17,715 nt of DNA from an uncultured bacterium (lineage in GTDB: Bacteria > Abyssobacteria > SURF-5): assembly GCA_964510165.1 (NCBI GenBank), contig CAZEBC010000069.1, positions 1 to 17,715 of the forward strand, given 5' to 3'. A program made the translations under genes and the position numbers. Below, one piece after another: positions 483 to 17,491 of this stretch; positions within the stretch are counted from its first letter, which is position 1; each line of letters starts with the position of its first letter. Below the pieces are notes generated by a model that did no database searches, had not been told where the DNA came from, and was given only the letters and a program-made list of their open reading frames with translations.

Positions 483-564
483 TATGGATTCCCCGGTCAA
501 GCCGGGGAATGACATACGGGAGAAACCAGAATTCTTGTCATTCCCGCGCAAGCGGGAATCCATA
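483..564. repeat. Inverted pair of GTCATTCCC...GGGAATCCA palindromic REP-like elements (CGTC-tagged/dRS3-like)
   Basis: 483-514 reverse complement = TGTCATTCCCCGGCTTGACCGGGGAATCCATA; 536-564 = TGTCATTCCCGCGCAAGCGGGAATCCATA. The second has the ATTCCC-N8-GGGAAT core. Confidence 0.8.
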
Positions 565-612
565 CTTCCTGTCAATCGAAAATCTGGGCGAGACGCCCTG
601 TAGTCTTGGGGA

Positions 613-2108: not shown

Positions 2109-2112
<4 letters not shown>
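613..2112 (-). CDS. Cobalamin-binding-domain radical SAM protein (class B radical SAM methyltransferase-like)
   Basis: N-terminal B12-binding domain (YGVAFLSACLKQHGH, PDLIGFS, GGIHPT, GEGE), RGCPFNCSYC CxxxCxxC motif, DDLFT, GLESGS, IIGFPHET. ATGA overlap with gmhB. Confidence 0.9.
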
Positions 2113-2720
<608 letters not shown>

Positions 2721-2731
2721 CCAGTATCTCG

Positions 2732-5157: not shown

Positions 5158-5164
5158 TTCGGTT

Positions 5165-6058
5165 TCAGTATATTGGTTGTTCACCGTGGGGCCGCGTACG
5201 CCACCTTCGATGCACCCAGAACCATTGCGAGGGGTACCTGCGGATGTAGTCTTCCAGGGTGTTCGCACATTTCTGCGTAATGGCAAGTGCGTCAGCTTCC
5301 ATATCGTCGGTGCGAGTGACCTCGATGGGGCGCTCGATTATAAGCCTGTGCTTGCCCGGTCCTTCCCGCAGCATGAACACGGGCACGAGTGCGGCGCCCG
5401 TCCTCAGGGCAAGCATCGCAGGGCCGGCCGTGGTCGCCGCCTTCATCCCAAAGAAGTCCACGAACACATTCCCTCTGCGCGTGTTCTGATCGGCAAGTAT
5501 TCCCACGATCTCGTTTTGCTTCAAGCGTTTTACCACTCGATAGGCCGAACGACGTTCGATCACCTTCAGGCCGGAGGATTCCCTGATTTTACGTACTATC
5601 CGTTCGAGGTCGGGGTCGTCGAGCGGACGCGCCACCGCAGAAATCGGGTATCCAACCATCGCCCCTGCCGCCGCCATTAATTCCCAGTTGCCGAAGTGGG
5701 AAGCGACCAGCACTACCCCTTTTCCCGATTTCAGGCACTCGTCCAACCGCTCGCGATGTTCCGGCGAGATGATGGCCATGGCTTTTTCGGGTGAGAGCGC
5801 CGGTATCTGCAGGAATTCTACCACTGTCTGGCCCATATTGCGAAAGACGGCGCGAGTGATTTCCCTTATCTGGCTCTTGGAGAGGGCGTCTCCGAAGGCC
5901 AGGCGCAGGTTCTTGCAGGCCACACTCCGATGACGCCTGTCCACAAAATATGCGATGTCTCCCAGCACGATGCCCACTTTCGCTGCCGTGCCGGGCGACA
6001 GGCGGCCGAACAACAGTGTGAATGCCGCCGCTAGCCATTTCAGTATCGCTCCCTTCAT
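5165..6058 (-). CDS. lpxL: Lipid A biosynthesis late acyltransferase (LpxL/HtrB family)
   Basis: NLRLAF, HFGNWEL catalytic motif, LADQ, FVDFFG, IRRYPSQWFWVHRRW. Confidence 0.88.
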   Translation of the reverse strand: MKGAILKWLAAAFTLLFGRLSPGTAAKVGIVLGDIAYFVDRRHRSVACKNLRLAFGDALSKSQIREITRAVFRNMGQTVVEFLQIPALSPEKAMAIISPEHRERLDECLKSGKGVVLVASHFGNWELMAAAGAMVGYPISAVARPLDDPDLERIVRKIRESSGLKVIERRSAYRVVKRLKQNEIVGILADQNTRRGNVFVDFFGMKAATTAGPAMLALRTGAALVPVFMLREGPGKHRLIIERPIEVTRTDDMEADALAITQKCANTLEDYIRRYPSQWFWVHRRWRTRPHGEQPIY

Positions 6059-6110
6059 CTGTCAGAATCTTCGCAAATCCTTATTCCATAAGGCCCTACA
6101 GTTTGCCTAT

Positions 6111-6139
6111 ATTATAGAGAAGAGGCTGCCAAAACTCAA
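6111..6139 (-). promoter_or_regulatory. Putative sigma70 promoter of the LPS operon
   Basis: Minus strand TTGAGT-N17-TATAAT, about 50 nt upstream of the lpxL start. Confidence 0.6.
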
Positions 6140-6154
6140 GGGCCACCGGCCGTC

Positions 6155-7591
6155 TCACGCCTCCACGCCCGCCATCCGTTTCGCCATCGTCGCGTACTGC
6201 TGGAGCGGCGCCTCGAACAGTATCATCATCTTCTGAGCCTCCATCGAGCCTTCGGCATGGACGGTGGTTATCTCCATGTGCGCGTGCTCGGCAGAGGCAA
6301 CTGCGCGATGAGCCTGCTCGATCAGTCGGAGCCGCTGTTCCGTGGTGAACCGCTCGGATCCCCCGAGATAGTGTTCCATGTAATCGTGCGTGGCCGGGTT
6401 CATCCAGTCCCTATATGTCGGCGCGGTTGTGATAATGCCGCCGCAAATGTCCTGGATTAACTTGATGAAGTTGTGATAATTCGAAGCGAAATGAAGCTTG
6501 GCCATGTTGGTCACGAGAGGGTTGGGCACGGCCATCTCGCCATACATGATCGGGTCTTTCGCCGCGGCGCGGGTGAGCGCCTTCAGCGTTTCAACGTAAG
6601 CGGCAATTTCGGCCAACTTGCCTCGTATATGGCCTATCTTTTCCAGGCCGTTCGCCTCCGCCATTGCGACTGCGCAGCCAGCCAGCATCTCCACCACGGG
6701 AATCTTGTAGCTGACCGCAGTGAACCGATGAAAACTCGCGAATGTGTAAGCGAGCAGCATCGAGAACTGCCACTCGCCGCACATGAACACCCGCTCCCAT
6801 GGGATAAACACGTTGTCGAACACGATCATCGCCTCACTCAGGGCGCGGACCGGAACATCGTTGGGGAATTCATACTGGCTGCGCTCGCCGCGGCCGGGCC
6901 TGCATATCATGGTGATCCCCTCGGCATTGGCCGGGACTGCGAAGCTGAGCGCGTAGTCGCCCTCATCCTCGCGCATTTGGCGCGTCGGCGTGACGATGAT
7001 CTCATTGGCCACGGGCCCGCTCGTGATGTGCATCTTGCAGCCTTTCACGACGATGCCGTCTTTTCGCTTGTCGACAACATGCAGATAATAGTCCGGATGC
7101 TTCTGTCGTGACGGCGGCCTGCCTCGGTCGCCCTTGGCGTCGGTCACCGCTCCGCACATGGCGAGGTCGTTCTTCTTGAGGTAACGCAGGAAATTCTTCG
7201 CCCGCTGTTTGTACTCCTCGTTTCCCATCTGGTCGGCGACCACCATGACGGCGTTGAGGCAGTCGGTACCCACGTCCTTACCAAACGGAAGCCCGCCCGT
7301 CAGCCTGATGGATTGCGCAATCATCTGGCTGCGCCGCTCCAGGTCCTCAACGGCCCTGGGCGGCTTGAAGAATCGGCTTATCGGCTCGCCTGTCTCCTCG
7401 TCTTCCGCCACGAATAACGTGCGAACCGCAGGGTCCTCCACCTCGGTCAGCACAAAATCCTGCGCCACGGTCTCGACGGCGACCTTGAGAATCGGGTGGG
7501 TAGTCACGTCGTCGACTTTCTCGCCCAAAATGAAAACGCGCCTGCCGTCACGCAGGCTCTGCCTGTATTGCTCCGGAGTTCTGAGCGCCAT
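6155..7591 (-). CDS. 4-hydroxybutyryl-CoA dehydratase / 4-hydroxyphenylacetate 3-hydroxylase (HpaB) family flavoprotein
   Basis: RTPEQYRQSLRDGR, VTDAKGDR, HPDYYLHVVD, GIVVKGCKMHIT, EAMIVFDNVFIPWERVFMCGE. Start moved to ATG 7591, which is preceded by AAGGAGG. Confidence 0.88.
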   Translation of the reverse strand: MALRTPEQYRQSLRDGRRVFILGEKVDDVTTHPILKVAVETVAQDFVLTEVEDPAVRTLFVAEDEETGEPISRFFKPPRAVEDLERRSQMIAQSIRLTGGLPFGKDVGTDCLNAVMVVADQMGNEEYKQRAKNFLRYLKKNDLAMCGAVTDAKGDRGRPPSRQKHPDYYLHVVDKRKDGIVVKGCKMHITSGPVANEIIVTPTRQMREDEGDYALSFAVPANAEGITMICRPGRGERSQYEFPNDVPVRALSEAMIVFDNVFIPWERVFMCGEWQFSMLLAYTFASFHRFTAVSYKIPVVEMLAGCAVAMAEANGLEKIGHIRGKLAEIAAYVETLKALTRAAAKDPIMYGEMAVPNPLVTNMAKLHFASNYHNFIKLIQDICGGIITTAPTYRDWMNPATHDYMEHYLGGSERFTTEQRLRLIEQAHRAVASAEHAHMEITTVHAEGSMEAQKMMILFEAPLQQYATMAKRMAGVEA

Positions 7592-7657
7592 ATCGCTTGC
7601 CTCCTTCTTGAATTGCAATTGGAGTCGGAGACACTTATCTCATAAGAAGCATGATTC

Positions 7658-7686
7658 ATTATACGGGGGCGCAGACGGCAGGTCAA
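7658..7686 (-). promoter_or_regulatory. Putative sigma70 promoter of the HpaB/AbfD-family gene
   Basis: Minus strand TTGACC-N17-TATAAT. Confidence 0.65.
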
Positions 7687-7703
7687 TTGGAAATATGATG
7701 CGA

Positions 7704-8969
7704 TTACAGCCCGCCTGCGAGGGCGCGATTGGCCGTCTTCTTGAATGCGGCGGCTATCTGGTCGAGATAATCCCGGCACGGAACGTGGAACCCGATGCTT
7801 GGGAGCACCAGTTCCTCGCTCGAGCAGCGCCGTTCAGCTACGGGACAATCACCCGGCTGATATTCCACCTGGCGGGCCGCATGGCTGCAACTCCACGGAC
7901 AGCCCTTTCCCCAGAAGCGGCGCTCCTGCATGCGCGGCCTGAGGTGAATTGGAACCCTCACGTAACTCGTGGTCTCCAGCCCCTCGAGCGCGAGCGCATT
8001 GCGGAAAGTCTCCAGTGGGACACTGTTAAGTTCGTCAGCCTTATAGATCAGTGGTATCATGTGGACCGCATGTGTGCAGTCGGGCGCCACATAGGTCGGC
8101 CTGATGCCGGGTATGTCCGCCAACTGTCGCGTGAGGTATGCAAGGTTTTCCTGACGCTGCGCGACCCATTTGTCAAGCCGTTTGAGCTGGACACCTGCAA
8201 TCGCAGCCGAAACCGGATGCATCCGGAAATTCGGCGCGATACTGTCGATGTACCTGCCGAGCGGACTGTCCTGCAGTTCCTGAAACTGGCGCATCGGATG
8301 CGAGGCCCAGCTTACGACCTCGTCAAAGAGCGATTCGTCGTCGAACACCAGGATGCCGCCTTCTCCACCGATCAGGTTCTTCGAGGCCTGTATGCTGAAG
8401 CAGCCGACATCGCCCAGGCTGCCGACTTTCGCGCCTTTATAGGTCGCTCCGTGCGCCTGCGCGCAGTCCTCGATTACCCGAAGCCCATATTCTCGCGCTA
8501 ATCGCATAATGGGCTCCATGTCGCATGGGTGACCGTAAATGTGAACGCACACGATCGCCTTGGTGCGGCTCGTGATATTCTTCCTGATCTCATCCGGACG
8601 CATGTTAAATGTCTGGGGGTCTATGTCGGCAAAGATGGGGATGGCGTTGTTGTGGAGGATGCAGCCGACGGTCGCGCCCCATGTGTAGGGTGAGACGATG
8701 ACCTCGTCGCCCGGACCCACTCCGCACACGTGAAGCGCGGTGTCAAGCGCTGCCGTACCGCTGCTGACCGCAAACGCAAACTTGCGGCCCTGATACCGGG
8801 CAAAATCGTCCTCGAAATCCTTGATCACGCCGACCTGCATTACCGGCGAAAGCGACTCTTCCTTGAGGACTCTGACTACCGATTGGATGATCTCGTCGTC
8901 TATGACCGGCCATGGCGAAGGCGATATCGTTACCGTTCTTTCCGTTTCATCTTGGCGTGTCCGCTCCAT
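7704..8969 (-). CDS. DegT/DnrJ/EryC1/StrS family PLP-dependent aminotransferase
   Basis: SSGTAAL, GPGDEVI, VHIYGHPCD, IEDCAQAHGA, FSIQASKNL (PLP lysine), GEGG; SD AAGGAAGG. Confidence 0.92.
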   Translation of the reverse strand: MERTRQDETERTVTISPSPWPVIDDEIIQSVVRVLKEESLSPVMQVGVIKDFEDDFARYQGRKFAFAVSSGTAALDTALHVCGVGPGDEVIVSPYTWGATVGCILHNNAIPIFADIDPQTFNMRPDEIRKNITSRTKAIVCVHIYGHPCDMEPIMRLAREYGLRVIEDCAQAHGATYKGAKVGSLGDVGCFSIQASKNLIGGEGGILVFDDESLFDEVVSWASHPMRQFQELQDSPLGRYIDSIAPNFRMHPVSAAIAGVQLKRLDKWVAQRQENLAYLTRQLADIPGIRPTYVAPDCTHAVHMIPLIYKADELNSVPLETFRNALALEGLETTSYVRVPIHLRPRMQERRFWGKGCPWSCSHAARQVEYQPGDCPVAERRCSSEELVLPSIGFHVPCRDYLDQIAAAFKKTANRALAGGL

Positions 8970-9024
8970 GCCAAACCTTCCTTATTAGAAACAAGCATTC
9001 CATCTGCATTCTCACACGACGGTA

Positions 9025-9053
9025 ATTCTATATCAGATTTTGGGAATTATCAA
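9025..9053 (-). promoter_or_regulatory. Putative sigma70 promoter of the DegT-family gene
   Basis: Minus strand TTGATA-N17-TAGAAT. Confidence 0.55.
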
Positions 9054-9184
9054 TAGGGGAGGGGGCGCCGACGTGTTGCTTGTTTCCTATTTCCAACACG
9101 CACCAGGGAACAAATTACAAAATGGAGGCCAGCACGTCTCGCCCGAGACGGTGGACTCGTCGAAGCAGAAAGATAACTGGAATG

Positions 9185-9214
9185 AAAAAGCCGCCCGAAA
9201 AAATCTCGGACGGC
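9185..9214 (-). terminator. Rho-independent terminator after tRNA-Leu
   Basis: Minus strand GCCGTCCGA-gattttt-TCGGGCGGC hairpin followed by TTTTT. Confidence 0.8.
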
Positions 9215-9216
9215 GG

Positions 9217-9301
9217 TGCGGGGAGGGGGACTTGAACCCCCACGGGAGCAATTCCCGTCAGCCCCTCAAGCTGGTGTGTCTGCCAGTTCCACCACCCCCG
9301 C
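9217..9301 (-). tRNA. tRNA-Leu (anticodon GAG)
   Basis: Minus strand GCGGGGG TGGTGGAACTGGCAGACACA CCAGC-TT GAG GG-GCTGA CGGGAATTGCTCCCG T GGGGG-TTCAAGT-CCCCC TCCCCGC A folds into a cloverleaf with a long variable arm. The next bases are CCG, so CCA is not encoded. Confidence 0.97.
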
Positions 9302-9314
9302 AAGCTGCATTTTC

Positions 9315-9343
9315 ATTATAGCCGCAACCTCGAGAATTGTCAA
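9315..9343 (-). promoter_or_regulatory. Consensus sigma70 promoter of tRNA-Leu
   Basis: Minus strand perfect TTGACA-N17-TATAAT, 13 nt upstream of the tRNA 5' end. Confidence 0.85.
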
Positions 9344-9388
9344 TGCAACCGCGCCGTTTAACTCGGTTCCGGACAATCACATCTTCCT

Positions 9389-10054
9389 TCATATCTTCCT
9401 CAAGGATGAAACCATCTTCAAAGCTTCCTTGAGCGCGTTCGAGGCGCTGTCGGCGGTGCCGTCCGCGCCGAACTTGTGAACGATTTCCTCCGTGACCGGA
9501 GCGCCGCCGATCATGATCTTGACATTCGGGTTCCTTTCGCGAATCAGCTTGATCACGCGTTCCATGCCGAGCATGGAGGTCGTCATCATCGCCGACAGAC
9601 AGACAAGCTCGGCGTTCGTCTTGAGCTGTTCCGCGACGAAACTCTCGAGCGGGACGTCCTTGCCCAAGTCGTGCACCTCGAAGCCGGCGACCTCGAACAT
9701 CATCTTTACCAGATTTTTTCCGATATCATGCACGTCGCCCTGAACGGTGCCGATAACCACGACCCCCTTCGTCTTCTGCGTGTCTTCTATCTTCATGTGG
9801 GGCCTCAGGATGCTTAGGCCCGAATAAAGTGCGTCCGCGCACAAGAGCAGTTCCGGCACGAAGTATTCCTCTTCTTCCCATAGGCGGCCCGCCTCCTCCA
9901 TCCCTTTGGCCAGCCCGTTCATAATGGCGTCATACGCATCAAGCCCGAGTTCGATTACTTCATTTGCGGCCTTTACCACCTCGTCCTCTTCGAATTTGAG
10001 GACTCCGTCGGCCAGTCTCTTGAGCAGTTCGAGTCGCTTTGCTTCGTCTGCCAT
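9389..10054 (-). CDS. Methyltransferase cognate corrinoid protein (MtaC/MtbC family)
   Basis: Cap domain GLAKGM...YFVPELL, base-off/His-on motif GDVHDIGKNLV, LSAMMTT, IGGAP. Start moved to ATG 10054 (MADEAKR, preceded by GAAGGGA). Confidence 0.93.
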   Translation of the reverse strand: MADEAKRLELLKRLADGVLKFEEDEVVKAANEVIELGLDAYDAIMNGLAKGMEEAGRLWEEEEYFVPELLLCADALYSGLSILRPHMKIEDTQKTKGVVVIGTVQGDVHDIGKNLVKMMFEVAGFEVHDLGKDVPLESFVAEQLKTNAELVCLSAMMTTSMLGMERVIKLIRERNPNVKIMIGGAPVTEEIVHKFGADGTADSASNALKEALKMVSSLRKI

Positions 10055-10083
10055 TTTGTGTTCCCTTCTCTGAAGTCTTGCCT

Positions 10084-11112
10084 TTAAGCTCTTCGCATGC
10101 TTCTCACCGTGCGAACCAGCGCCTCCATGTTCTCCTTTGGGGCTGTCGGCCAGATATCGCAGCCCGGCCATACCGCATCCACTCCGCCGCTCACGCAGTC
10201 CTTGACCGCCTTTTCGACGTCGGCGGGAGTACCCCTCACGAGCACGTTAAAGGGATCGAAGTTGCCCAGCAGAATCGGTTTGGGTCCGATGGCGGCCCGC
10301 GTTTCGCTCAGTTCGTTCTTCTGATCGACGCTCAGCGCGTGTGCCCCACATCGGTTCATGGAGTCAATGATCGAGTTGGTCTTGCCACAGATGTGGAGCA
10401 CTAATCTCCCCTTCGAATTATTAAAAATCCGCCTCAGATGCGGCTCAACAAGCTTCTTGAAAAGGGCGGGCCGCAACACATCGGAGCATGCGCCCATCTC
10501 GCGAATGGTAATGTAGTCGGCGCCCGCCTCGAAATAAATCTCGGCAAATTCTATCACGAGGTCGGCATAAAGACGCAATACCTCGTCCACGCGCTCCGGG
10601 TTCTTCAGGCATATCTTCAGCAGGTCGTTCAATTCCATCGTCTGACCGGCGATGGTAAACGGACCCATCACATATGTGCCAATAGCGACGTTATCGCCGA
10701 TATCCCGCTTCAACATGCGAATGGCCTCGATGACCACCGGTACCCTGCCAGCGCCGGAAAGCCTGGCGGGAACGCGCACGTCCGCCGCCGATGCAACCAC
10801 CTTTTCTTTCACAGTCGGGTAGAGGATTTCCTCCGGATTGACATTCGTATAGAAGTTGATCGGACATCCGAGCGCCTCGGCCTCGATCGCGACATCGAAG
10901 GGAACCACTGCGCAATCGAACCCGAACAGCTGGTAGGTCGTGGCCGCCAGCGTTGCCATCTTGCGCGCATCGGTATGCGCTTCGGCAAAACGAACTCCGG
11001 TCTGCTTCATCCCTTCTATCGTGACGTTTCCCATCCCGCTGAAACACAGGATTCCCCCGTCACGCCTGCCGTCCAACAGATTCAGAACTTTTTCTCGTGA
11101 ATTCACGCGCAT
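10084..11112 (-). CDS. MtaA/CmuA-family methyltransferase (uroporphyrinogen decarboxylase fold, Zn-thiol type)
   Basis: PFDVAIEAEALGC, GRVPVVIEAI, GPFT, LHICG and PGCDI (H-x-C...C zinc ligands), GNFDP. Confidence 0.88.
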   Translation of the reverse strand: MRVNSREKVLNLLDGRRDGGILCFSGMGNVTIEGMKQTGVRFAEAHTDARKMATLAATTYQLFGFDCAVVPFDVAIEAEALGCPINFYTNVNPEEILYPTVKEKVVASAADVRVPARLSGAGRVPVVIEAIRMLKRDIGDNVAIGTYVMGPFTIAGQTMELNDLLKICLKNPERVDEVLRLYADLVIEFAEIYFEAGADYITIREMGACSDVLRPALFKKLVEPHLRRIFNNSKGRLVLHICGKTNSIIDSMNRCGAHALSVDQKNELSETRAAIGPKPILLGNFDPFNVLVRGTPADVEKAVKDCVSGGVDAVWPGCDIWPTAPKENMEALVRTVRSMRRA

Positions 11113-11123
11113 ACTCCTTGTTC

Positions 11124-12065
11124 CTATCCCCTCAATTGCTCCACAAAGTCCTTGAACAAGGTTCCAAGCGGATGCCGAACCTCCGGAAGCTCACCGCTCT
11201 CCGCGTATCTGAACGTTGCCTTGATTGACTCTGCCACCGCCGCAGCCGCAAACACTCGCTCGGCGCCCGGCATCGGGCCGAAGAAAAGGAAGTCGCTCCA
11301 TAACAGCGCCGCGATCGCGTGCGCCGCCGCATCGGCCCCAACGAAACTGGACCGCGACCCGAATCGCCGTATCTCCTCCCACATGTACGTCCCGTTTGCG
11401 GGAGAACACCCCACGGGGAGTCCAAAGCGTTCCTTGATCTCAAAACCGGCCTGCATCGAAAATGCCATGGCCGCCAGATTCATCACCGTCGTGTCGATCA
11501 GAATGCTGTTGAATTCACCCTTCTTGACGATGGGCAACAACCTCTCGAGCGATTTGAGCCTTCCACTGGCGAGTTTGTCGGCCTCATCGAACACTGCAAC
11601 CACCACATGGCGCACCCCGGCCCCGGCCAGTTCCTCAACTTCCGCTGAAAGGTTGGGGTTCCATGGGTTCAGGCTGTTGTAAACAAGCCGGTCGAGCAGC
11701 CCGGCGCCCGACGCCCTCCTGGCCGTCTCGATCCTTACCTCAGGACGCCAGGAGTCGATGCACAGAGGAATCTTCGTTTCGGCGGCGACGAAGTCCAGGT
11801 AGCCCATCAATTCATCAGCCGAGTTGCCGATGAGGTCCACCATTGCCGGAATCGCGGTCTGCTCCGAGAATTCCTCCAGGCGTTTGATTTGAGCGCGCGC
11901 GGCCTCTTTGTCAAATGAGCCTTGTTTCCGGTTTCGCAGCAGCCTGTCACCCTTGTGGAACATCGAGCCGATAAGGACGGTCGGAATCGCTCCCGGCTGC
12001 CCGCCCACCTTCACGCCGCCGATGTCAAATACTTCTTGCTCTTTCTGGAATCTGAAGTGATTCAC
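11124..12065 (-). CDS. MtrH/MtgA/CmuB-family pterin-dependent methyltransferase (tetrahydromethanopterin S-methyltransferase subunit H-like)
   Basis: N-terminal F.FQKEQEVFDIGGVKVGGQPG..PTVLIGSMF is the MtrH signature; also IDS, VYNSLN, GLPVGC, DFLFFGP. GTG start. Confidence 0.88.
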   Translation of the reverse strand: MNHFRFQKEQEVFDIGGVKVGGQPGAIPTVLIGSMFHKGDRLLRNRKQGSFDKEAARAQIKRLEEFSEQTAIPAMVDLIGNSADELMGYLDFVAAETKIPLCIDSWRPEVRIETARRASGAGLLDRLVYNSLNPWNPNLSAEVEELAGAGVRHVVVAVFDEADKLASGRLKSLERLLPIVKKGEFNSILIDTTVMNLAAMAFSMQAGFEIKERFGLPVGCSPANGTYMWEEIRRFGSRSSFVGADAAAHAIAALLWSDFLFFGPMPGAERVFAAAAVAESIKATFRYAESGELPEVRHPLGTLFKDFVEQLRG

Positions 12066-12157
12066 TTTCTATAGACCTTTCAAGAGAAAACTGACTGCTC
12101 TGCACCACTGACTATCAGTTTCTTGAATGCGCTCCGTTGTTTTGTTGTGCTTTGAGT

Positions 12158-12187
12158 TGTAGGGGCGGTTCGCGAACCGCCCTTACA
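12158..12187. repeat. GTAG-tagged REP-like palindrome
   Basis: TGTAGGGGCGGTTCGCGAACCGCCCTTACA is a near-perfect palindrome with a GTAG tag. Confidence 0.8.
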
Positions 12188-12209
12188 GTTCGTCCGGCTT
12201 GGTGATTTT

Positions 12210-12284
12210 CCCCCCAACCCTTCCGGTGGGAGAGGGCGCACTCATATTGACCCTCTCCCTCTGGGAGAGGGCAGGGTGAGGGGG
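12210..12284. repeat. BoxC-like CCCTCTCCC..GGGAGAGGG..GGGTGAGGG repeat pair (one degenerate copy, one intact copy)
   Basis: 12251-12284 CCCTCTCCCTCTGGGAGAGGGCAGGGTGAGGGGG; 12210-12236 CCCCCCAACCCTTCCGGTGGGAGAGGG is a degenerate copy in the opposite orientation. Confidence 0.7.
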
Positions 12285-12312
12285 CTTTGGTTGCGGCTCC
12301 ACCGCTCCGTGA

Positions 12313-14256
12313 TCATCCGGGCAACATTCCCTCAAGACTTGGAAAATGGTCGGACATATGGGGAAAGTGCATTGCCTCAACGAATTCCCGCTCGAACTCC
12401 TTTTCCAGTGTCAGTTCCACATACTCCACGCGGCGGGCCTGCTCCTCGGCTTCACGTCTCTTATTCACATCCAGCAGTGCCATTCGCGCGCCGTCGCCGG
12501 CCGCGTTGCCGACCGCGATGACGTTCTCAATCGGACAATCCGGAAACATACCCATTACCATCGCGCAGGTGCGGTCAATGTATGTTCCAAAAGCCCCCGC
12601 CAGCACCACGCGGTCAACCTTTTCGACGCCCAGCTTGCGCATCAGGATTTTCGAACCGGCATAGATGGCGCCCTTCGCAAGTTGCACCGCGCGCACATCA
12701 CCCGCCGTGATGGTGATGTCCCTGCCGATGGCGGTTTCTTCTTTCGGCACAAGCACGAATTCGCGCGTCTTGCCGTCTTGAATGAGCCTGGACGTGGTGA
12801 GCGACTTGTTGATCCTGCCGCTCTTCTCGATGACGCCAGCCCGGAACATCTCCGCTATCGCATCTATTATGCCTGACCCACAGATGCCGCGGGCAAGCTG
12901 ATGGTCCTCTCCCGCGATGATCTTGTATTCCACTTTGAACGTTTCGGGATTGATTGCGACCCGTTCCACTGCGCCCGGTGCGGCACGCATCCCAAACTTT
13001 ATATGCGCGCCCTCGAGCGCCGGACCCGTCGCGCACGACGCCGCCAACAGCCTGTCGCGATTGCCCACCAGAATCTCGCCGTTCGTGCCGATGTCGATGA
13101 TGAGTTGCATCTCATCCTTCTGATACGGCGCCTCCGCGATCAAGACTCCTACATTGTCCGCCCCCACAAACCCGGCTTCGTTCGGCAGTACGTGAACATT
13201 GGCGGAGTCATTGACCGCAATCCCGAGTTCCTTCGCCTTCACGTCGAGCGCGCTCTGCACCGCAGGCACAAACGGCGATACGCCCACGCCCACCGGCGTG
13301 ATATTGAGGAACAAGTGGTGCATGACCGTGTTGCCGACCACGCACAACTCGAGAATATCGTCGGGGCAGATTTCCGCTTTCTCACACACGTGCGATACGA
13401 TTTCGTTCATCGCCCCGATTATCTCGCGATGCAACTCTTCGAGGCCGTTTTCATGCGTCATGATGTAGGTGACGCGCGACATGACATCTTCGCCATATGC
13501 GACCTGCGGATTCATGAACGAATGGGTGGCGGCGACCTCTCCGGTGGCGAGATTACAGAGATATCCGGCGACGGTTGTCGTGCCAATATCAACCGCGAGG
13601 CCGAAACACTTCATCGAGCCGCCCGGCACAACCCGCAATATCTCGCGGTTCATCCAGACTGCGACCGAAACCTCCCAATTGCCGTCACGGAGCGCGCGAG
13701 GGAGCCTTGCCAGAACATCCCGTCCCGCTCTCAAGCCGATTAATCCATGCTGCGACTTCAACCCTGCGGTCAGCCGTTCGTAATCTCCGAGCGGGTCGGC
13801 CAGTGTGGGTTTTTCCAACTTCGCCGTATGGACTCTGACGGCGGGATTAAGCTCGATCTTGCGGAGAGTGACTTCCTTTCGGACAACCTGTTTGCCGCCC
13901 CGGCTCTCCTCGGGAACATGGATGAGCGCATCGCCCTGAACTTGTGTCGCGCATGCCAACCGGTAGCCCTCTGACAGTTCCTCATCAGTCAGGAACTTCT
14001 TTTCTTCACTTGTGAGAGGAGAAAGATGCTCCGTCCGGCTTTGGATGCCGTGACGCTCGAAGAAGCCCTCCAGCACTCGGACCTTGCATTTGCCGCACGT
14101 CTTCTTGCCGCCGCACACAGATTCGATATCAACGCCAAGCTCGCGGGAAACCTCGAGGAGGTTCTTGCCCTCCTCGACTCGTCCGCGTTGGCCGGAGGGC
14201 TGGAAGATTATGAGATGGTTCCGCAAAATTCGCTCCTTATTCCTGTTCTCCCCCAT
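12313..14256 (-). CDS. ATP-dependent reductive activator of corrinoid proteins (RACo/RACE; N-terminal 2Fe-2S + ASKHA domain)
   Basis: CGGKKTCGKC...RLAC [2Fe-2S] motif, DIGTTT, NPQVAYGEDVMSR, GNTVMHH, FVGAD, DIGTNGE, GPALEG, GICGSG, QLAKGA, LAGAFG, GNAAGDGA. An alternative TTG start at 14226 has an AAGGAG SD. Confidence 0.93.
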   Translation of the reverse strand: MGENRNKERILRNHLIIFQPSGQRGRVEEGKNLLEVSRELGVDIESVCGGKKTCGKCKVRVLEGFFERHGIQSRTEHLSPLTSEEKKFLTDEELSEGYRLACATQVQGDALIHVPEESRGGKQVVRKEVTLRKIELNPAVRVHTAKLEKPTLADPLGDYERLTAGLKSQHGLIGLRAGRDVLARLPRALRDGNWEVSVAVWMNREILRVVPGGSMKCFGLAVDIGTTTVAGYLCNLATGEVAATHSFMNPQVAYGEDVMSRVTYIMTHENGLEELHREIIGAMNEIVSHVCEKAEICPDDILELCVVGNTVMHHLFLNITPVGVGVSPFVPAVQSALDVKAKELGIAVNDSANVHVLPNEAGFVGADNVGVLIAEAPYQKDEMQLIIDIGTNGEILVGNRDRLLAASCATGPALEGAHIKFGMRAAPGAVERVAINPETFKVEYKIIAGEDHQLARGICGSGIIDAIAEMFRAGVIEKSGRINKSLTTSRLIQDGKTREFVLVPKEETAIGRDITITAGDVRAVQLAKGAIYAGSKILMRKLGVEKVDRVVLAGAFGTYIDRTCAMVMGMFPDCPIENVIAVGNAAGDGARMALLDVNKRREAEEQARRVEYVELTLEKEFEREFVEAMHFPHMSDHFPSLEGMLPG

Positions 14257-14271
14257 TCAACTTAACCCCTC

Positions 14272-14346
14272 AAAATAAAGCGCCTCCCTTTCGCCCAAAG
14301 CATGATTCCATCCATAATCGTATGGGCTTGCCGAGAGGGAGGCGCT
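14272..14346 (-). terminator. Long GC-rich hairpin with U-rich tail between the 593-aa gene and RACo (terminator/attenuator candidate)
   Basis: Arms 14279-14293 and 14332-14346 match at 14 of 15 positions (AGCGCCTCCCTYTCG). On the minus strand the hairpin is followed by TTATTTT. Confidence 0.5.
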
Positions 14347-14361
14347 CCCGAGTTCCGCCTC

Positions 14362-14390
14362 ATGGTATCAGAACCTTTCATGAAATTCAA
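14362..14390 (-). promoter_or_regulatory. Possible internal sigma70 promoter upstream of RACo
   Basis: Minus strand TTGAAT-N17-TACCAT with an extended -10 TG; overlaps the palindrome TTTCATGAAA (14376-14385). Confidence 0.35.
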
Positions 14391-14395
14391 TCGCG

Positions 14396-16177
14396 TCAGC
14401 CTTCAATCTGCCCCGCAATGCGCACCGCAAGCATGGCCACCTTTTCGGCCCGCTCGCGTGCCCCGGGAATCGCTGTCGAGATAAACCCTCCGGCTTCGGC
14501 GAGTTGCGCGGCCTCTTGAGGCGAATGCCTTCCCATTGCCGCCGCCACGGCGGCAGGAACAGTAATGTTCAGGATAATATTCGATCCCATGAGCATCTCA
14601 TTTAGCGGAACGGCGGCAAACGGGATGAACGACAACACGCTTTCATCCTTCTCCCGGACTGCTTTCGGAATTACTTTGTGGGCCAGTCCCTCGAAGCGCA
14701 TGGTCTGGTCTCCGATGGTAATCTCGACATCGGCGTCAACATCGAAACTCAAGTGCCGCTTTGCTATGTCGTCCGGCCTCCGTGCCCCGCACGCTATCTT
14801 GGAGAACCTGATGCCTATTTCCTGTCCCATTTGTTTCATAAAATAGGTGGTGGCGCCTTTTTCAGCCGAGACCTGTCGCTCCTCGTCGAGCGCTCTGACA
14901 ACGGAGCCCAAATCGGCCCCCTCCGAGAGCATCACGTATGCTTTTTCGGCGCGGCGACGAACGGCCTCGATCTTGATCCCTTCCGTTCCGCGGATAATGG
15001 CTCGCGTGACAGGTCCTCGCCGCAGTTGCTCGGCCTTCCGGGCCACCACATTGGCCGACACTTTCCCGATTTCCGGGTCCATGAAGTATTCGTGCCGCAC
15101 ATCGTGAACGATAGTCGCCGCCATTTCCTCGTCACCGTTGTGCTCGATGAGCGCGAGAAGAGAGATGACTGCGTCAGTGGTGACCCGGCTGAGCACGCTG
15201 GCGACCGGTCCGCTGCCTCCGCCGCAGCCGATCCAGCCGCCTTCTTTGAAGCAGCCCAGTGTGTCGTCAAGCGTAATCATCGCCATGACGCTGGGTCCGC
15301 CGATATCCTTCAGGATCAATCCCAGGTCTCCCACCACCTTCGCCGTGTCAACCTCGCGGTCAATGCCCTTGATATGCAGCGTTTCCGGCAGACCAGTGGC
15401 CATAACCGCTCCCTGGCCGGCAAGCTGAGTGGAATTGATCTTGCTGTAGTTCCCGTATTCCGGCGAGACGCGGGCATCGGGATGCACGATCTCGAGAATA
15501 GCCGCAGCCCCGAAGAGCGCCGACATGATCCGGTTCGGCTGCATCCCCGCTCCCGCGTAAGCGTTCATCATCGCCTCCGCCCCTATGCGGGCGCCCTCCC
15601 TCGCCATGGCGGGATATACGATATCCTCTCCGAGCGCCGAATGCCCATAGATGGGCCCCCGGGCGACGCCATTGGGGACAAGCCGGCCGTCTATCGGGCT
15701 TAGCTTCCCTTCCTCCATAGCACGGTAGATGGCCATCACCGCCGGAAACCCCGAAATCTTGCTGTTTGTCTTCGGGGTGGGAACGGCCACCACCCCGCAG
15801 CGGTCCGCGCCCGCAATCATGCGCGCCATGGCCCCCAGCTTGCGGTTGCCCGCCGCAACACCGGCCTGAACATTCGAGCCCGCGAAATAAATGAGCACCG
15901 CACTCAGGAGCGCCGCATTGGCGGCATCGGCGCCCGCTGCCTTCGCGGCGCTGATGCACTCCTGGAGAACGTGATCGAGCGGGATTTCGGGCGCATTCTC
16001 TGAAGTCACCTTCAGCCTGGTCCCTCGCAGAAATTCTTCCGCGATCACGTTCGCGATAGAGAACACCGCGAAACTGAGCATCCCGTGGCCTTTCATCAAC
16101 GCCTCGAGACGGTCGCACGTCATGAGGTCAACATCCGCTATCGAGGCCGTCATCGCGGCGAGGACTTCTTTCTTCAT
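14396..16177 (-). CDS. Hypothetical protein (593 aa, Ala/Gly-rich, apparently soluble, no family recognised)
   Basis: Long ORF with protein-like composition, AAGGA SD, co-oriented and tightly packed between the LarC-like gene and RACo. Confidence 0.85.
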   Translation of the reverse strand: MKKEVLAAMTASIADVDLMTCDRLEALMKGHGMLSFAVFSIANVIAEEFLRGTRLKVTSENAPEIPLDHVLQECISAAKAAGADAANAALLSAVLIYFAGSNVQAGVAAGNRKLGAMARMIAGADRCGVVAVPTPKTNSKISGFPAVMAIYRAMEEGKLSPIDGRLVPNGVARGPIYGHSALGEDIVYPAMAREGARIGAEAMMNAYAGAGMQPNRIMSALFGAAAILEIVHPDARVSPEYGNYSKINSTQLAGQGAVMATGLPETLHIKGIDREVDTAKVVGDLGLILKDIGGPSVMAMITLDDTLGCFKEGGWIGCGGGSGPVASVLSRVTTDAVISLLALIEHNGDEEMAATIVHDVRHEYFMDPEIGKVSANVVARKAEQLRRGPVTRAIIRGTEGIKIEAVRRRAEKAYVMLSEGADLGSVVRALDEERQVSAEKGATTYFMKQMGQEIGIRFSKIACGARRPDDIAKRHLSFDVDADVEITIGDQTMRFEGLAHKVIPKAVREKDESVLSFIPFAAVPLNEMLMGSNIILNITVPAAVAAAMGRHSPQEAAQLAEAGGFISTAIPGARERAEKVAMLAVRIAGQIEG

Positions 16178-16198
16178 AATTCGGTCATCCTTTCGGAC

Positions 16199-16699
16199 TC
16201 ACAAGTCGAGCTCTATTTGATCGTTCCCGTTCATTATCTGCGATTCGAGGCGCCCGCGCAACTTCGACAGTGAAACTCTTGTCTTTAGTTTCTGCTCCAC
16301 TTGCTCGCGCAATCGCACGAGGTCGGCGTGCTCGACCCGGCAATCGCCCGTCCCGTGCCCCGATACCTTGGAATGGATGTGTGTTTCCAATCGAGTGCGG
16401 CCTTTCCGAATGATCACCGTGTGGCTTTGCTGCCGACATCGAGAACAGTAATGAGAAGTGAGAATTCGATGATAGCCGTAAACCGACAATTCCTCTGCCA
16501 AAAGACGCGCCCATTTGGCCTCATCATCCGGGTCGATGTCAATCAAAAGCACACAACTGGGGCGGTTTCTCTTGGTTGTTCCGGGCAACGCATGCACGTT
16601 ACGCGCGCCCCACCGCATGATCTGGTCAATCGCAAAGCCCAACTCCTCGCCCGTAAGGTGGTCCACCTGAGCCAGAATCAGCATTCCATCCTTCTTCAT
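16199..16699 (-). CDS. LarC-family (nickel insertion protein) C-terminal-domain-only protein (LarC2-like)
   Basis: AQVDHLTGEELGFAIDQIMRWGARNVHALPGTTKRNRP resembles the LarC C-terminal pattern (xNxDDxxxExxGxxxxxLxxxGAxDVxxxPxxMKKxRP), and RVEHADL resembles KPEYED. ATGA overlap with tetR. Confidence 0.72.
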   Translation of the reverse strand: MKKDGMLILAQVDHLTGEELGFAIDQIMRWGARNVHALPGTTKRNRPSCVLLIDIDPDDEAKWARLLAEELSVYGYHRILTSHYCSRCRQQSHTVIIRKGRTRLETHIHSKVSGHGTGDCRVEHADLVRLREQVEQKLKTRVSLSKLRGRLESQIMNGNDQIELDL

Positions 16700-17388
16700 T
16701 GGCTCTCCCGGCGAGGCTTGCCCCGCCTCCTTCCGCTGGATGGCGAAAGCAGCCCCTTCAGCCAGTCCATCATGCGGTCCACTATCCGGGTGTGTGTGGC
16801 TTCATCTGCGCTGAACGGCATATGAAAAAATTCCTCCAGGCGGATGCGATGGTATTCCGAAACAAATCCGGCGTAAAGGAAGAAGCAAAGGCTGCTGACA
16901 AGGTGGGCCGTCATCTCAACGTCAATGTCCGGCCGGACTTCCCTCCGCTCGATGCCCTCGACCAATATCGCGCGGATGTTCTTGAACACCGTGGACTCGG
17001 CGCGTTGCGTGACTTCCCGAGCGAAGGGGTCCATGTCGGATGTGCCGAGTTGCAGCAGTATTCGAAATGTATCGTTCCGGGCTTCCGTCTCGGTCTGCTT
17101 ATTTTCCAGAAGCATTCGGATTTTCTGGAGGCAGGTCGCCTTGGCGCCAAGTACACTGCGCATGTACTCATCCTTGCCTTGAACCTGTCGCTCAATTACC
17201 GCACGATACAAGTCCGCCTTGCTCTCGAAATATTTGTAAAGAGCTCCATTGCTGATACCCGCGCGCTCGCAGATGTCGTTGATGTTCGCCTTGTGGTAGC
17301 CTTGTCTGGCGAATTCTATCTGGGCCGCGCGCAGCACGCGGTCTTGCTTTTCTTTCGGGATATTCTGGAACGTTCTGCCCGGCGCCAT
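16696..17388 (-). CDS. TetR/AcrR family transcriptional regulator
   Basis: TFQNIPKEKQDRVLRAAQIEFARQGYHKANINDICERAGISNGALYKYFESKADLY HTH. ATG 17388 is preceded by AGGAG and is preferred over TTG 17412. Confidence 0.93.
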   Translation of the reverse strand: MAPGRTFQNIPKEKQDRVLRAAQIEFARQGYHKANINDICERAGISNGALYKYFESKADLYRAVIERQVQGKDEYMRSVLGAKATCLQKIRMLLENKQTETEARNDTFRILLQLGTSDMDPFAREVTQRAESTVFKNIRAILVEGIERREVRPDIDVEMTAHLVSSLCFFLYAGFVSEYHRIRLEEFFHMPFSADEATHTRIVDRMMDWLKGLLSPSSGRRRGKPRRESQ

Positions 17389-17436
17389 TGCAACGCTCCT
17401 GTGTCTGCGCAAATGTGCGTCGCCTGCATGGAGATG

Positions 17437-17456
17437 GAGAGCGACCGTTCACTCTC
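17437..17456. promoter_or_regulatory. Putative TetR operator palindrome
   Basis: GAGAGCGACCGTTCACTCTC is self-complementary at 16 of 20 positions and starts right at the predicted +1 of the adjacent promoter. Confidence 0.6.
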
Positions 17457-17462
17457 TAAAGA

Positions 17463-17491
17463 ATTATACCGACCCACCTCCTCCTTGTCAA
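17463..17491 (-). promoter_or_regulatory. Consensus sigma70 promoter of the tetR-larC2-hypothetical cluster
   Basis: Minus strand perfect TTGACA-N17-TATAAT. Confidence 0.82.

Follow-up and report, generated by a model that had tools for sequence, protein, structure and literature searches.

In bacterial corrinoid methyl-transfer systems, UroD-superfamily proteins of the MtaA/CmuA type have been described in the role of MT1, and MtrH-like proteins act as methylcorrinoid:tetrahydrofolate MT2 (PMC8630106, PMC13222342). Within the UroD superfamily, a His-Cys-Cys site has been presented as the mark of S/Se-methyltransferases; the same preprint describes type 1 mlp clusters, in which MtaA-like Mlps occur with a corrinoid protein and Ram/RACE and which are proposed to act in methyl-sulfur/methyl-selenide metabolism (Kountz and Balskus, PMC10418091). 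These clusters are defined there by Mlp2 plus Mlp3, without a tetrahydrofolate methylase. In LarC, the LarC2 part is reported to be the CTP-binding, CMPylating core and LarC1 the nickel-insertion part (PMC13510736).

Here, we analyzed a stretch of 17,715 nucleotides from an uncultured bacterium, referred to as the window, in which an ordinary complete B12-type methyl-transfer system is joined to a gene pair found elsewhere among nickel-cofactor genes. To our knowledge this pair, which is widely conserved, has never been studied. The ORF list and translations of the whole window showed seven co-oriented ORFs on the minus strand (9389-17412), encoding in 5' to 3' order a TetR-family regulator, a LarC2-like protein (LarC2x), an orphan protein of 593 aa (X593), RACo, an MtrH-family protein, a URO-D/MtaA-family protein and a corrinoid protein. 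The TetR and LarC2x genes overlap by 4 nt, with the LarC2x start overlapping the TetR stop, and 21 nt separate LarC2x from X593. Gaps of 11 nt (MtrH to URO-D) and 29 nt (URO-D to corrinoid protein) were found further downstream, and the RACo gene is separated from its neighbours by longer stretches (139 and 247 nt), with strong hairpins in them. The G+C content is uniform across the locus (0.54-0.61).

The four downstream genes are termed module B. The RACo-type corrinoid-protein reductive activase (2Fe-2S + ASKHA ATPase; 12313..14256, minus strand) holds all four RACo/Fer2 domains in Pfam (PF14574, PF17651, PF17650, PF00111) and scores 491 bits against the AcsV model, under the cutoff of 800. 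The MtrH-family methyltransferase (11124..12065, minus strand) matches PF02007 at 1e-58 and NF002142 at 316.9 (cutoff 287). Its best solved relative is 6sj8, the methylcorrinoid:tetrahydrofolate methyltransferase of D. hafniense, and it is probably the MT2 with this same specificity. The MtaA/CmuA-family methyltransferase of the UroD superfamily (10084..11112, minus strand) passes the cutoffs of TIGR01463 (263; cutoff 235.4) and NF004889 (272.7; cutoff 244); MtaA 4ay7 is its best solved relative (166 bits), and the HICG and PGC motifs align. Residues H240, C242 and C318 are invariant in six relatives, showing that the His-Cys-Cys site is kept. The protein is probably an MT1, and we infer its substrate class to be S/Se. 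The corrinoid protein (9389..10054, minus strand) contains the domains B12-binding_2 (PF02607) and B12-binding (PF02310) and a D-x-H-x-x-G motif, and scores 194 against TIGR02370, under the cutoff of 215. Its ORF runs to 10171; the probable true start is M40 at 10054, which gives a protein of 221 aa, compared with 222 aa in L001, a locus closely related to the window, as is L008.

A first-pass annotation of this DNA had seen no MT1 and hence a gap for the two extra genes. Since the URO-D protein belongs to a superfamily with members that serve as MT1, passes TIGR01463 and NF004889 and keeps His-Cys-Cys, no MT1 is missing. As judged from their sequences, the four proteins make up a complete MT1/corrinoid protein/MT2/activase system of a known bacterial type. 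The MtaA-like enzyme would work on the substrate side, most likely taking a methylated sulfur or selenium compound as substrate or, run backwards, a thiol. The corrinoid protein would serve as methyl carrier, the MtrH-like enzyme would exchange the methyl group with tetrahydrofolate, and RACo would re-reduce Co(II).

The other two genes form module A. X593 (14396..16177, minus strand) is mostly alpha-helical, without a clear transmembrane segment, and matched no family in Pfam or NCBIfam. We found 835 homologues, with methanogen members about 50% identical; a profile search of 1.84 billion representative proteins returned just 237 matches, and clustering at 50% left 14 full-length representatives among the 150 matches listed. 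The family is compact and uniform, with an identity of about 50% between bacteria and archaea and with invariant residues His 31, 179 and 232 and Lys 113, 136, 290 and 381. The AF2 model (pLDDT 85.9, pTM 0.89) matched no PDB fold at E<=1e-3, and comparison with LarC1 revealed no similarity (hhalign probability 0.36%). LarC2x (16199..16699, minus strand; 166 aa) stands alone and matches positions 246-370 of PF01969 at 5e-14; its score against the LarC2 model NF052512, 47.4 bits, is just short of the cutoff of 50. Structure-database matches were LarC2 (PDB 6bwo, 7.5e-5) and MK0293 (3c19). Residues D13, T42, K43, R46, D54, E70, H83 and K111 are invariant in LarC2x, and the T-K-K-x-R-P segment is kept and aligns to 6bwo. 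In the tree, the X593-partnered LarC2x proteins are split from 19 true full-length LarC C-domains (SH-aLRT 97), a split that holds within the Methanosarcinaceae, which possess both.

Gene neighbourhoods were compared across 80 related loci, which come from methanogens and numerous bacterial phyla. A LarC2-like gene adjoins X593 in 76/80 loci with the window query and in 76/80 with the LarC query (union 77/80), and two of the three loci without this adjacency lie at contig ends. Nickel-pincer genes (LarB, LarE, LarC1 or full LarC) were found in 31/80 loci. LarB lies within 10 kb of the pair in 28 of the 80, covering Archaea and at least five bacterial phyla, and in most of these 28 it is on the same strand about 1-2 kb away. 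LarE, LarB and LarC1 score above the NCBIfam equivalog cutoffs in L030, L060, L069 and L007. The order LarE-LarB-X593-URO-D-X593'-LarC2x-LarC1 was found in L030, a Nitrospirota MAG, and LarC2x-X593-LarB-LarC1 in L069, L074, L075 and L056. At 12 loci, LarC2x lies about 3 kb or less from a stand-alone LarC1 or a non-Methanosarcinaceae full LarC; full LarC also occurs in 17 further Methanosarcinaceae loci. No Lar gene besides LarC2x was detected within 10 kb at 49/80 loci, nearly all Methanobacteriaceae included, and LarB, LarE and LarC1 were found neither in the window nor within 10 kb in L001 and L008. Among the scanned neighbour genes, none belonged to the DUF2088 (LarA) or AKR family.

Other neighbours vary: SelD, YedF and cysteine desulfurase in L055 and L059, rhodaneses in L046 and L080, PTS and aldolase genes in L061, a neighbour cluster represented by a NifX-like protein in 14 loci and one by a CobW-type GTPase in six.

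The first-pass annotation had also expected the pair to co-occur with corrinoid methyltransferase genes across genomes, a test set in advance, and this was largely not borne out: RACo, MtrH, URO-D and corrinoid genes stand beside the pair only in L001 and L008 (2/80), and URO-D genes alone in L030 (1/80). [quoted passage not shown] From the earlier interpretation we retain the gene identities and the view that the two proteins are partners with a connection to a metal cofactor; the missing-MT1 argument falls away.

In the window, both modules lie behind one perfect sigma-70 promoter, as had been claimed for the seven genes (TTGACA-17 nt-TATAAT, 17463..17491, minus strand, 12/12 match). A promoter scan of the window gave four promoter-like sites against 2.8 +/- 1.5 in shuffles, but the operon and tRNA-Leu promoters are both 12/12 matches. 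The cluster stops, as described earlier, before a separately promoted tRNA-Leu(GAG) unit (9190..9343, minus strand), which consists of its own perfect promoter (9343-9315, 12/12), the gene (9301-9215) and a terminator (9214-9190). The palindrome noted downstream of the operon promoter (17436..17457, minus strand) consists of two inverted 9-nt arms around a 4-nt spacer and lies 6 nt past the -10 box (AGAGAGTGA-ACGG-TCGCTCTCC). It proved imperfect in the window, with 7/9 arm pairs, and was not reported by a repeat search of the window (seed 6); the repeat is 8/9 in L008 and perfect (9+9) in L001. The 22-nt element and the -35 box are conserved in L001 and L008. Because the element is conserved amid diverging flanks and perfect in L001, it is more than chance, and it is a probable TetR operator. 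The regulator itself (16696..17388, minus strand; PF00440 at 9.1e-15) scored below cutoff with every NCBIfam equivalog; its ORF reaches a TTG at 17412, and the ATG at 17388 behind AGGAG is the likely start. Between X593 and RACo lies a long hairpin with a U-run (14272..14349, minus strand; 13-bp G+C-rich stem, loop of about 47 nt, MFE -48.5 kcal/mol, z -2.0), which matched no Rfam family and was not called by the terminator scan with its loop limit of 8. It is possibly an attenuator or partial terminator and may uncouple transcription of X593 and RACo.

Our best explanation, held with moderate confidence, is that the cluster is a composite of modules A and B under one TetR-controlled promoter, and that X593 and LarC2x together act in nickel-pincer-type cofactor metabolism as a two-component, CTP-dependent enzyme similar to LarC. 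TetR would co-regulate this enzyme with an S/Se-methyl:tetrahydrofolate system. By analogy with the LarC2 domain within LarC, LarC2x could bind CTP and nucleotidylate the LarB-derived pyridinium mononucleotide, and X593 could carry out the next step in the stead of LarC1, to make or install a variant cofactor of the pincer type. We offer this mechanism tentatively; as X593 and LarC1 share no similarity, the placement of X593 is an analogy only. Points against the composite explanation are the absence of LarB, LarE and LarC1 from the window and from the surroundings of the pair in L001 and L008, the 49/80 loci with no further Lar gene, and the LarC2x score just short of the LarC2 cutoff.

A rather unlikely alternative is that X593 uses the cofactor, as a third nickel-pincer scaffold after LarA and the AKR protein NphT, with LarC2x as dedicated loader or maker of a cytidine-dinucleotide form. 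X593 sits at the user-gene position of lar clusters that lack LarA, and its invariant residues include His and Lys, residues of the kind to which NPN is tethered in LarA and NphT. About 15% of genomes are reported to carry larB, larE and larC without larA (PMC11796402). NphT was discovered by the same adjacency logic, via Pfam co-occurrence (PMC13524815), and X593 would slip through such a screen since it has no Pfam family. However, the known NPN users are large, substrate-diversified families, whereas the X593 family is compact and uniform, and neither LarA nor NphT needs a private LarC2.

We consider it unlikely that the pair is integral to the corrinoid pathway, in substrate activation or product processing, for example by redox chemistry on methyl- or methylene-tetrahydrofolate. 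The window, L001 and L008 share the order TetR-LarC2x-X593-(URO-D)-RACo-MtrH-URO-D-CP, and in the distant L030 a URO-D protein with His-Cys-Cys is encoded between the two X593 copies. C1-pterin genes occur near the pair in 15/80 loci, among them 13 of the 35 bacterial ones: MTHFR directly upstream in L069, FolD and FTHFS in L038, L055 and L059 (with FTCD in the latter two), and MtdB-like and Fwd/Fhc-like genes directly downstream in L012, L073 and L077. Carriers of the pair are methanogens, acetogens and bacteria with H4MPT genes. Against this, no gene for a corrinoid protein, RACo or a URO-D protein stands beside the pair in 77/80 loci, C1 genes are absent from 14 further bacterial loci, the pair occurs in hydrogenotrophic Methanobacterium and Methanobrevibacter, and the four-gene system requires no extra MT1. 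The three syntenic loci, with X593 identities of 84-88%, are close relatives and therefore amount to about one observation. Their synteny, the independent X593/URO-D adjacency in L030 and the C1-pterin neighbours leave room in the composite explanation for a real, lineage-specific functional link between the modules, which may exist.

It is improbable that the pair is unconnected to the nickel-pincer cofactor, with LarC2x serving an unrelated enzyme (perhaps of S/Se or C1 metabolism) as a ferredoxin-like subunit that binds nucleotides or has a regulatory role, and lar proximity in some lineages due to shared LarC2-domain ancestry: the 49 loci without another Lar gene and the varied neighbours fit this, but the recurrent position of LarB, on the same strand and close by in Archaea and at least five bacterial phyla, speaks against it. 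We know of no role of LarB outside NPN synthesis.

Compared with the bacterial and archaeal three-component corrinoid systems with activase (the O-demethylases Odm/Mtv/Mto, chloromethane Cdm and glycine-betaine Mtg), module B has the same parts list: a UroD-superfamily MT1, a corrinoid protein, a tetrahydrofolate-methylating MtrH-like MT2 (as MtoA and D. hafniense 6sj8) and RACo. Unlike in those systems, the candidate for MT1 is closest to MtaA, with a His-Cys-Cys site that points to S/Se rather than O/halide, and one promoter serves the module together with TetR, LarC2x and X593. Three features of the window recur in type 1 mlp clusters: a methyltransferase of the MtaA-like type with His-Cys-Cys, a corrinoid protein and an activase of the bacterial type. 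L001 and L008 carry two methyltransferases of this kind. By gene content the window differs from the type 1 clusters: it has a single MtaA-like gene, accompanied by an MtrH-family one. LarC2x resembles the C-terminal region of LarC, the CTP-dependent nickel cyclometallase composed of LarC1 and LarC2, and solved LarC2, but it stands alone, scores under the LarC2 cutoff, falls in a separate clade and has a constant partner unrelated to LarC1. Like the LarA racemases and NphT, X593 is encoded within or beside lar clusters, here without LarA; unlike them, it has no sequence or fold similarity to solved proteins, its cofactor binding is hypothetical, and it forms a compact family with an obligate LarC2 paralogue.

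Seven co-oriented open reading frames (ORFs) were found on the minus strand at 17412-9389, with a perfect sigma-70 promoter (TTGACA, a 17-nt spacer and TATAAT, 17491-17463) ahead of the gene for a TetR regulator. A second perfect promoter (9343-9315) serves the tRNA-Leu(GAG), which has its own terminator. The first-pass annotation had described such a cluster behind one perfect promoter, ending just before a separately promoted tRNA-Leu, and the ORFs and both promoters bear this out. Using the Pfam and NCBIfam libraries, families were given to six of the seven ORFs; the exception is the 593-aa protein encoded at 16177-14396 (minus strand), termed X593 here. The first half of the operon encodes TetR, a stand-alone 166-aa LarC2-like protein (LarC2x, 16699-16199, minus strand) and X593, the second half the activase RACo, an MtrH-family protein, a URO-D (MtaA/CmuA family) protein and a corrinoid protein (CP). 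The genes at positions 1-9000 of the window, Gram-negative envelope genes and others on the minus strand, show no apparent connection with the operon; they encode a heptosyltransferase fragment, a B12-binding radical SAM protein (613-2112), a HAD phosphatase, an HldE-like kinase/adenylyltransferase (2732-4228), a lipid A acyltransferase (5165-6058), a HpaB/4-hydroxybutyryl-CoA-dehydratase-like protein (6155-7618) and a DegT-type aminotransferase (7704-8969).

The TetR regulator (PF00440) most likely starts at the ATG at 17388, behind an AGGAG. The operator-like palindrome noted earlier (17457-17436) pairs at seven of nine arm positions in the window, and a repeat search at seed 6 did not report it, since mismatches interrupt the arms. 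Alignment of the window with two related loci showed that the -35 box and the repeat are kept while the flanks diverge, and a perfect 9+9 version is present in L001, one of the two loci closest to the window. The regulator carries a TetR_N helix-turn-helix (PF00440), and the repeat, which is conserved, follows the -10 box immediately; together they have the features of a TetR repressor with a putative operator overlapping its own promoter.

Genes within each half are closely spaced: TetR and LarC2x overlap by 4 nt, LarC2x and X593 are 21 nt apart, and the gaps between the MtrH-family and URO-D genes and between the URO-D and CP genes are 11 and 29 nt. RACo is flanked by two longer gaps, 139 nt after X593 and 247 nt before the MtrH-family gene. 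The 139-nt gap contains a 13-bp G+C-rich stem followed by a U-run (z = -2.0), a possible attenuator or partial terminator. Within the 247-nt gap (12066-12312, minus strand) lie two short, perfect hairpins, one with a 9-bp stem (CCCTCTCCC/GGGAGAGGG) and one formed by a 10-bp palindrome (GGGCGGTTCG/CGAACCGCCC), neither followed by a U-run; these hairpins look like REP-type intergenic elements or RNA-stability elements. A promoter scan found no site of at least 9/12 in either gap and one 9/12 site within the 3' end of X593 (14601-14574). Rfam detected only the tRNA across the whole window and no riboswitch in either gap. Co-transcription of both halves appears plausible. At the X593/RACo junction (14257-14395) the window has the hairpin-containing 139-nt gap alone. 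In the two closest loci, L001 (12357-13931) and L008 (9202-10353), this place is occupied by an additional URO-D paralogue with a His-Cys-Cys site, accompanied in L001 by a DUF559 endonuclease-like gene; the difference suggests a deletion or insertion at this junction.

The second half resembles a known type of methyl-transfer system. RACo has all three RACo domains (PF14574, PF17651, PF17650) and a 2Fe-2S domain (Fer2). The CP, whose most likely start is M40 (10054) in agreement with the 222-aa orthologue in L001, combines PF02607 (B12-binding_2) and PF02310 (B12-binding), and its translation contains GDVHDIG, a D-x-H-x-x-G motif. The MtrH-family protein (NF002142, 316.9 against a cutoff of 287) has as its nearest solved relative the D. 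hafniense methylcorrinoid:THF methyltransferase 6sj8 (173.6 bits). The URO-D protein is assigned to the MtaA/CmuA family within the UroD superfamily (TIGR01463, score 263, cutoff 235.4). Among solved proteins it comes closest to MtaA 4ay7 (166.5 bits), and the HICG and PGC segments of the two align; His240, Cys242 and Cys318 are invariant in all six URO-D proteins aligned (window, L001, L008 and L030). According to the available text of PMC13222342, the substrate-side methyltransferase (MT1) of bacterial systems often belongs to the UroD superfamily, as in O-demethylases and the chloromethane protein CdmB, and the accessible part of PMC8630106 describes MtrH-like proteins outside the Mtr complex as methylcorrinoid:tetrahydrofolate or H4MPT methyltransferases. 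The earlier premise that no MT1 is present was thus mistaken: the URO-D protein belongs to the MT1-type superfamily, and the MtrH-like protein is of the pterin-side (MT2) type. Judged by these family assignments, MT1, CP, MT2 and activase are all encoded in the window and the predicted system is complete. In the available text of Kountz and Balskus (PMC10418091), a His-Cys-Cys site denotes an S- or Se-methyltransferase in the UroD superfamily, and the cysteines are replaced in O-demethylases. The URO-D protein carries the site expected of the S/Se-type members (MtaA/MtbA/MtsA, Mlps). Since the site is kept, this half is best read as a putative methyl-sulfur or methyl-selenium:tetrahydrofolate system, or its reverse.

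X593 matched no Pfam and no NCBIfam family. A word-indexed search returned 835 relatives; among the matches listed, none of 120 relatives carried a precomputed Pfam domain, and the source names shown were all "hypothetical" or "uncharacterized". Among these listed matches X593 is 76-87% identical to proteins from MAGs labelled Abyssobacteria, Poribacteria, Hydrogenedentota and Lindowbacteria and about 50% identical to those of Methanobacterium, Methanocella, Methanosarcina, Methanobrevibacter and Methanothermobacter; a length of about 590 aa and about 50% identity are maintained from Methanobacterium to Burkholderiales. A profile of 24 sequences has a mean column identity of 70%, and Gly, Pro, His, Lys, Asp and Glu are invariant at many positions. 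Searched against 1.84 billion cluster representatives, it gave only 237 matches at E<=1e-3 and no distant relatives; 14 of the 150 profile matches listed were full-length (587-627 aa), the others being shorter pieces. Longer fused forms were absent at E<=1e-3 from 7999 scored candidates, which is weak evidence, and no X593-LarC2 fusion was seen, with nothing longer than 627 aa among the near-length matches listed. The AlphaFold model is of high confidence (pLDDT 85.9, pTM 0.89) and mostly helical. Foldseek found no PDB chain at E<=1e-3, designed helical repeats being the best hits (TM ~0.14), in a PDB searched to April 2026, so that a full-length LarC cryo-EM structure of August 2026 may fall outside. 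ESM Atlas gave no usable match with X593 or a Methanobacterium homologue as query. A membrane protein was considered and discarded, as the top 19-residue hydropathy is 1.6 and no clear transmembrane segment is present. A literature search did not find a paper on the family; the supplementary co-occurrence tables of PMC13524815 may list it.

The constant partner of X593 is LarC2x. Altogether, 217 genomic places encode an X593 relative, and the best 80 were taken with 10-kb flanks (45 archaeal and 35 bacterial by record title). Many are closely related, 17 being Methanosarcinaceae and about 25 Methanobacteriaceae, so that counts do not represent independent events. With flanks limited to 10 kb, plain ORF calling and short MAG contigs at many loci, the neighbourhood counts are lower bounds. 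In these best 80 of 217 loci a LarC2-like ORF adjoins X593 in 76 with the window protein as query, in 76 with a LarC query and in 77 with both united, two of the three misses lying at contig ends. LarC2x usually follows X593 directly; it precedes X593 in the window, in L001 and L008 and in several Firmicutes. Within the LarC nickel-insertion family, the match of the window LarC2x is confined to the C-terminal third (PF01969 positions 246-370, 5e-14). The protein scores 47.4 bits with the LarC2 model NF052512, under the cutoff of 50, and matches the solved L. plantarum LarC2 (6bwo, 7.5e-5) and the stand-alone M. kandleri protein 3c19. No N-terminal region of PF01969, and hence no LarC1 partner, was found among the window ORFs scanned; LarC1 or full LarC is nearby in 29 of the best 80 loci. 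A LarC2 tree was calculated from 85 rows, 64 stand-alone proteins of 150-215 aa including that of the window (ORFs outside this range were excluded) and 21 labelled full-length. The C-domains from 19 true full-length LarC proteins fall on one side of a branch with SH-aLRT 97, and all the stand-alone proteins on the other; the two other "full" rows (L046, L053) are over-extended ORFs overlapping X593, and for all 21 labelled rows grouping together was not rejected (AU test, p = 0.16). Methanosarcinaceae carry both LarC2x and full LarC, which makes LarC2x a paralogue in its own right rather than one part of a split LarC.

Next to the pair, RACo, MtrH-family, URO-D and CP genes occur together only in L001 and L008 among the best 80 of 217 loci, and the co-occurrence with corrinoid methyl-transfer genes expected from the first-pass annotation was therefore not general. 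URO-D genes alone are present in L030, and corrinoid genes lie 2-8 kb away in L031 (CP, RACo) and L070 (CP). Within 10 kb, again in the best 80 of 217 loci, LarB was detected in 28, full LarC in 20, stand-alone LarC1 in nine and LarE in six, and at least one of the four in 31. NCBIfam equivalogs confirmed LarE (316 and 231 bits, cutoff 150), LarB (298, 290 and 241 bits, cutoff 175) and LarC1 (191 bits, cutoff 90). Lar genes repeatedly accompany the pair, in Archaea and in at least five phyla of bacteria. The clearest cases have the orders LarC2x-X593-LarB-LarC1 in Lachnospiraceae and Eubacterium limosum, X593-LarC2x-LarB-LarC in Methanosarcinaceae, X593-LarC2x-LarC-LarE-LarB in three proteobacterial loci and flavodoxin-LarE-LarB-X593-URO-D-X593'-LarC2x-LarC1 in L030 (Thermodesulfovibrionales, 7720-16128). 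In this L030 MAG the two X593 paralogues flank the MtaA-like gene, the second one matching the window X593 at about E 1e-113, and no corrinoid protein is encoded within 10 kb. Neither LarB nor LarE is present in the 17.7-kb window or within 10 kb in L001 or L008, so that no cluster for the nickel-pincer nucleotide (NPN) is found there. No LarA or aldo-keto-reductase family member was found among the X593 neighbours scanned.

C1-pterin genes lie near the pair in 15 of the best 80 of 217 loci, and 13 of these 15 belong to the 35 bacterial loci. MTHFR is encoded immediately upstream in L069. The others are FolD and FTHFS in L038, L055 and L059, with FTCD in the latter two, MtrH-family genes in L001, L008, L029 and L047, and genes for MtdB-like, MptN-like ATP-grasp, formylmethanofuran-dehydrogenase-type (A, B and D subunits) and H4MPT-biosynthesis proteins in L012, L017, L034, L063, L072, L073 and L077. 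Sulfur/selenium genes are a third theme, weaker than Lar and C1-pterin: SelD, YedF and a cysteine desulfurase/SclA-like gene are encoded directly upstream in L055 and L059, and rhodaneses in L046 and L080. In 14 other bacterial loci none of these genes was found near the pair, and neighbours in the Methanobacteriaceae loci are mostly NifX-like, Mrp-like and DUF134 proteins. One cluster of 14 loci, mostly from Methanobacteriaceae (e.g. L028, 8267-8671), has a small NifX/NafY-like protein (Nitro_FeMo-Co domain) encoded near X593, and two Synergistota loci (L034/L063) have one between LarB and an ATP-grasp gene; this recurrent neighbour hints at a metallocofactor context. In the Firmicutes loci L038, L055 and L059, the genes next after X593-LarC2x-LarC1 encode a DUF1893 (TM1506) protein and an ECF-transporter S component, which may together take up a metal or a cofactor precursor. 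An HxlR-type regulator adjoins the pair in seven Firmicutes loci (L038, L056, L062, L069, L070, L074, L075). HxlR regulators respond to formaldehyde and other aldehydes, which would fit the C1 theme. In Burkholderiales-type loci a 441-aa protein without Pfam or NCBIfam family is encoded beside X593 (L046, 1105-2427; L053, 4267-5589; L058, 6200-8888, two copies).

The pair is thus a real, widespread and uncharacterised module, and its interest lies in the link to nickel-pincer cofactor genes. Of the earlier interpretation, the grouping of the two proteins and the tie to a metal stood; the idea that the pair supplies a missing MT1 did not, given the complete four-gene system. According to the accessible part of PMC13510736, CTP binds to LarC in its LarC2 core, the place where the pyridinium mononucleotide receives CMP ahead of nickel insertion by LarC1. 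A T-K-K-x-R-P segment is invariant in LarC2x, and based on this conservation we propose that LarC2x may bind CTP and transfer CMP. Because X593 has a private LarC2 paralogue even beside complete LarC, the pair might work as a two-step enzyme: LarC2x would perform the nucleotide activation, and X593 the second step in place of LarC1, as one conserved step such as making or installing a cofactor variant. Of the mechanisms considered we hold this one, drawn from gene context, to be the likeliest, though as a tentative proposal. A complex prediction for X593 and LarC2x gave a score of 0.00 without control runs and is evidence neither way. Alternatively, X593 could itself be a new cofactor-carrying enzyme. 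The gene context could accommodate this, but the compact, uniform family suits one conserved reaction better than a substrate-diversified user family, and we regard it as rather improbable; compared with the known NPN users (LarA DUF2088, aldo-keto reductase fold), X593 had no Pfam family and no PDB fold at E<=1e-3. The first-pass annotation had treated the pair as part of the methyl-transfer system. The pair shares a TetR-controlled promoter with the putative S/Se-type methyl:tetrahydrofolate system, and the C1-pterin and S/Se neighbours at other loci match this arrangement. A lineage-specific metabolic link may therefore exist, but the methyl-transfer chemistry does not require X593 or LarC2x, and the integrated model seems unlikely. 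Two further candidates were rejected: a divergent LarC1, at the sequence level (hhalign against a LarC1 profile of 12 sequences, probability 0.36%), and an enzyme building the H4MPT hydroxyglutarate-phosphate link by CTP activation, since the pair also occurs in tetrahydrofolate-only Firmicutes and the adjoining LarB, LarE and LarC1 would be left unexplained.

In a bolder view, X593 and its private LarC2 could conceivably stand for a new branch of cofactor biology, universally conserved and based on nickel-pincer or related pyridinium-metal compounds, either as a third, new carrier scaffold or as a LarC1-independent route to a variant cofactor, serving C1-pterin and methyl-S/Se metabolism in methanogens, acetogens and H4MPT-containing bacteria; we hold this as a speculative reading. 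If true, this would explain to what use organisms without LarA put their lar genes. About 15% of genomes have larB, larE and larC without larA, according to the available text of PMC11796402, and the user of the cofactor in them is a standing question of the NPN field. A recent discovery pipeline for NPN enzymes profiled Pfam co-occurrence (PMC13524815, as far as its accessible text goes), and X593, having no Pfam family, would be invisible to it. X593 is a concrete candidate for larA-less genomes that can be approached with existing E. coli co-expression systems and in genetically tractable organisms, Methanosarcina and Eubacterium limosum among them. The pair matters more than the methyl-transfer half. 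X593 belongs to no named family and has no solved fold, and its constant partner derives from the CTP-using core of the nickel cyclometallase LarC.

The methyl-transfer half is ordinary and at most adds a bacterial S/Se-methyl:tetrahydrofolate system. Among known systems it resembles the mlp gene clusters, as far as these are described in the available text of PMC10418091. A type 1 mlp cluster needs at least Mlp2 and Mlp3 genes with a CP and Ram/RACE, whereas the window has one MtaA-like gene as its single URO-D-family ORF, which places it outside this type. In addition, mlp clusters are described in that text as lacking a tetrahydrofolate methylase, whereas the window cluster carries a methylase of the tetrahydrofolate type, its MtrH-family gene.
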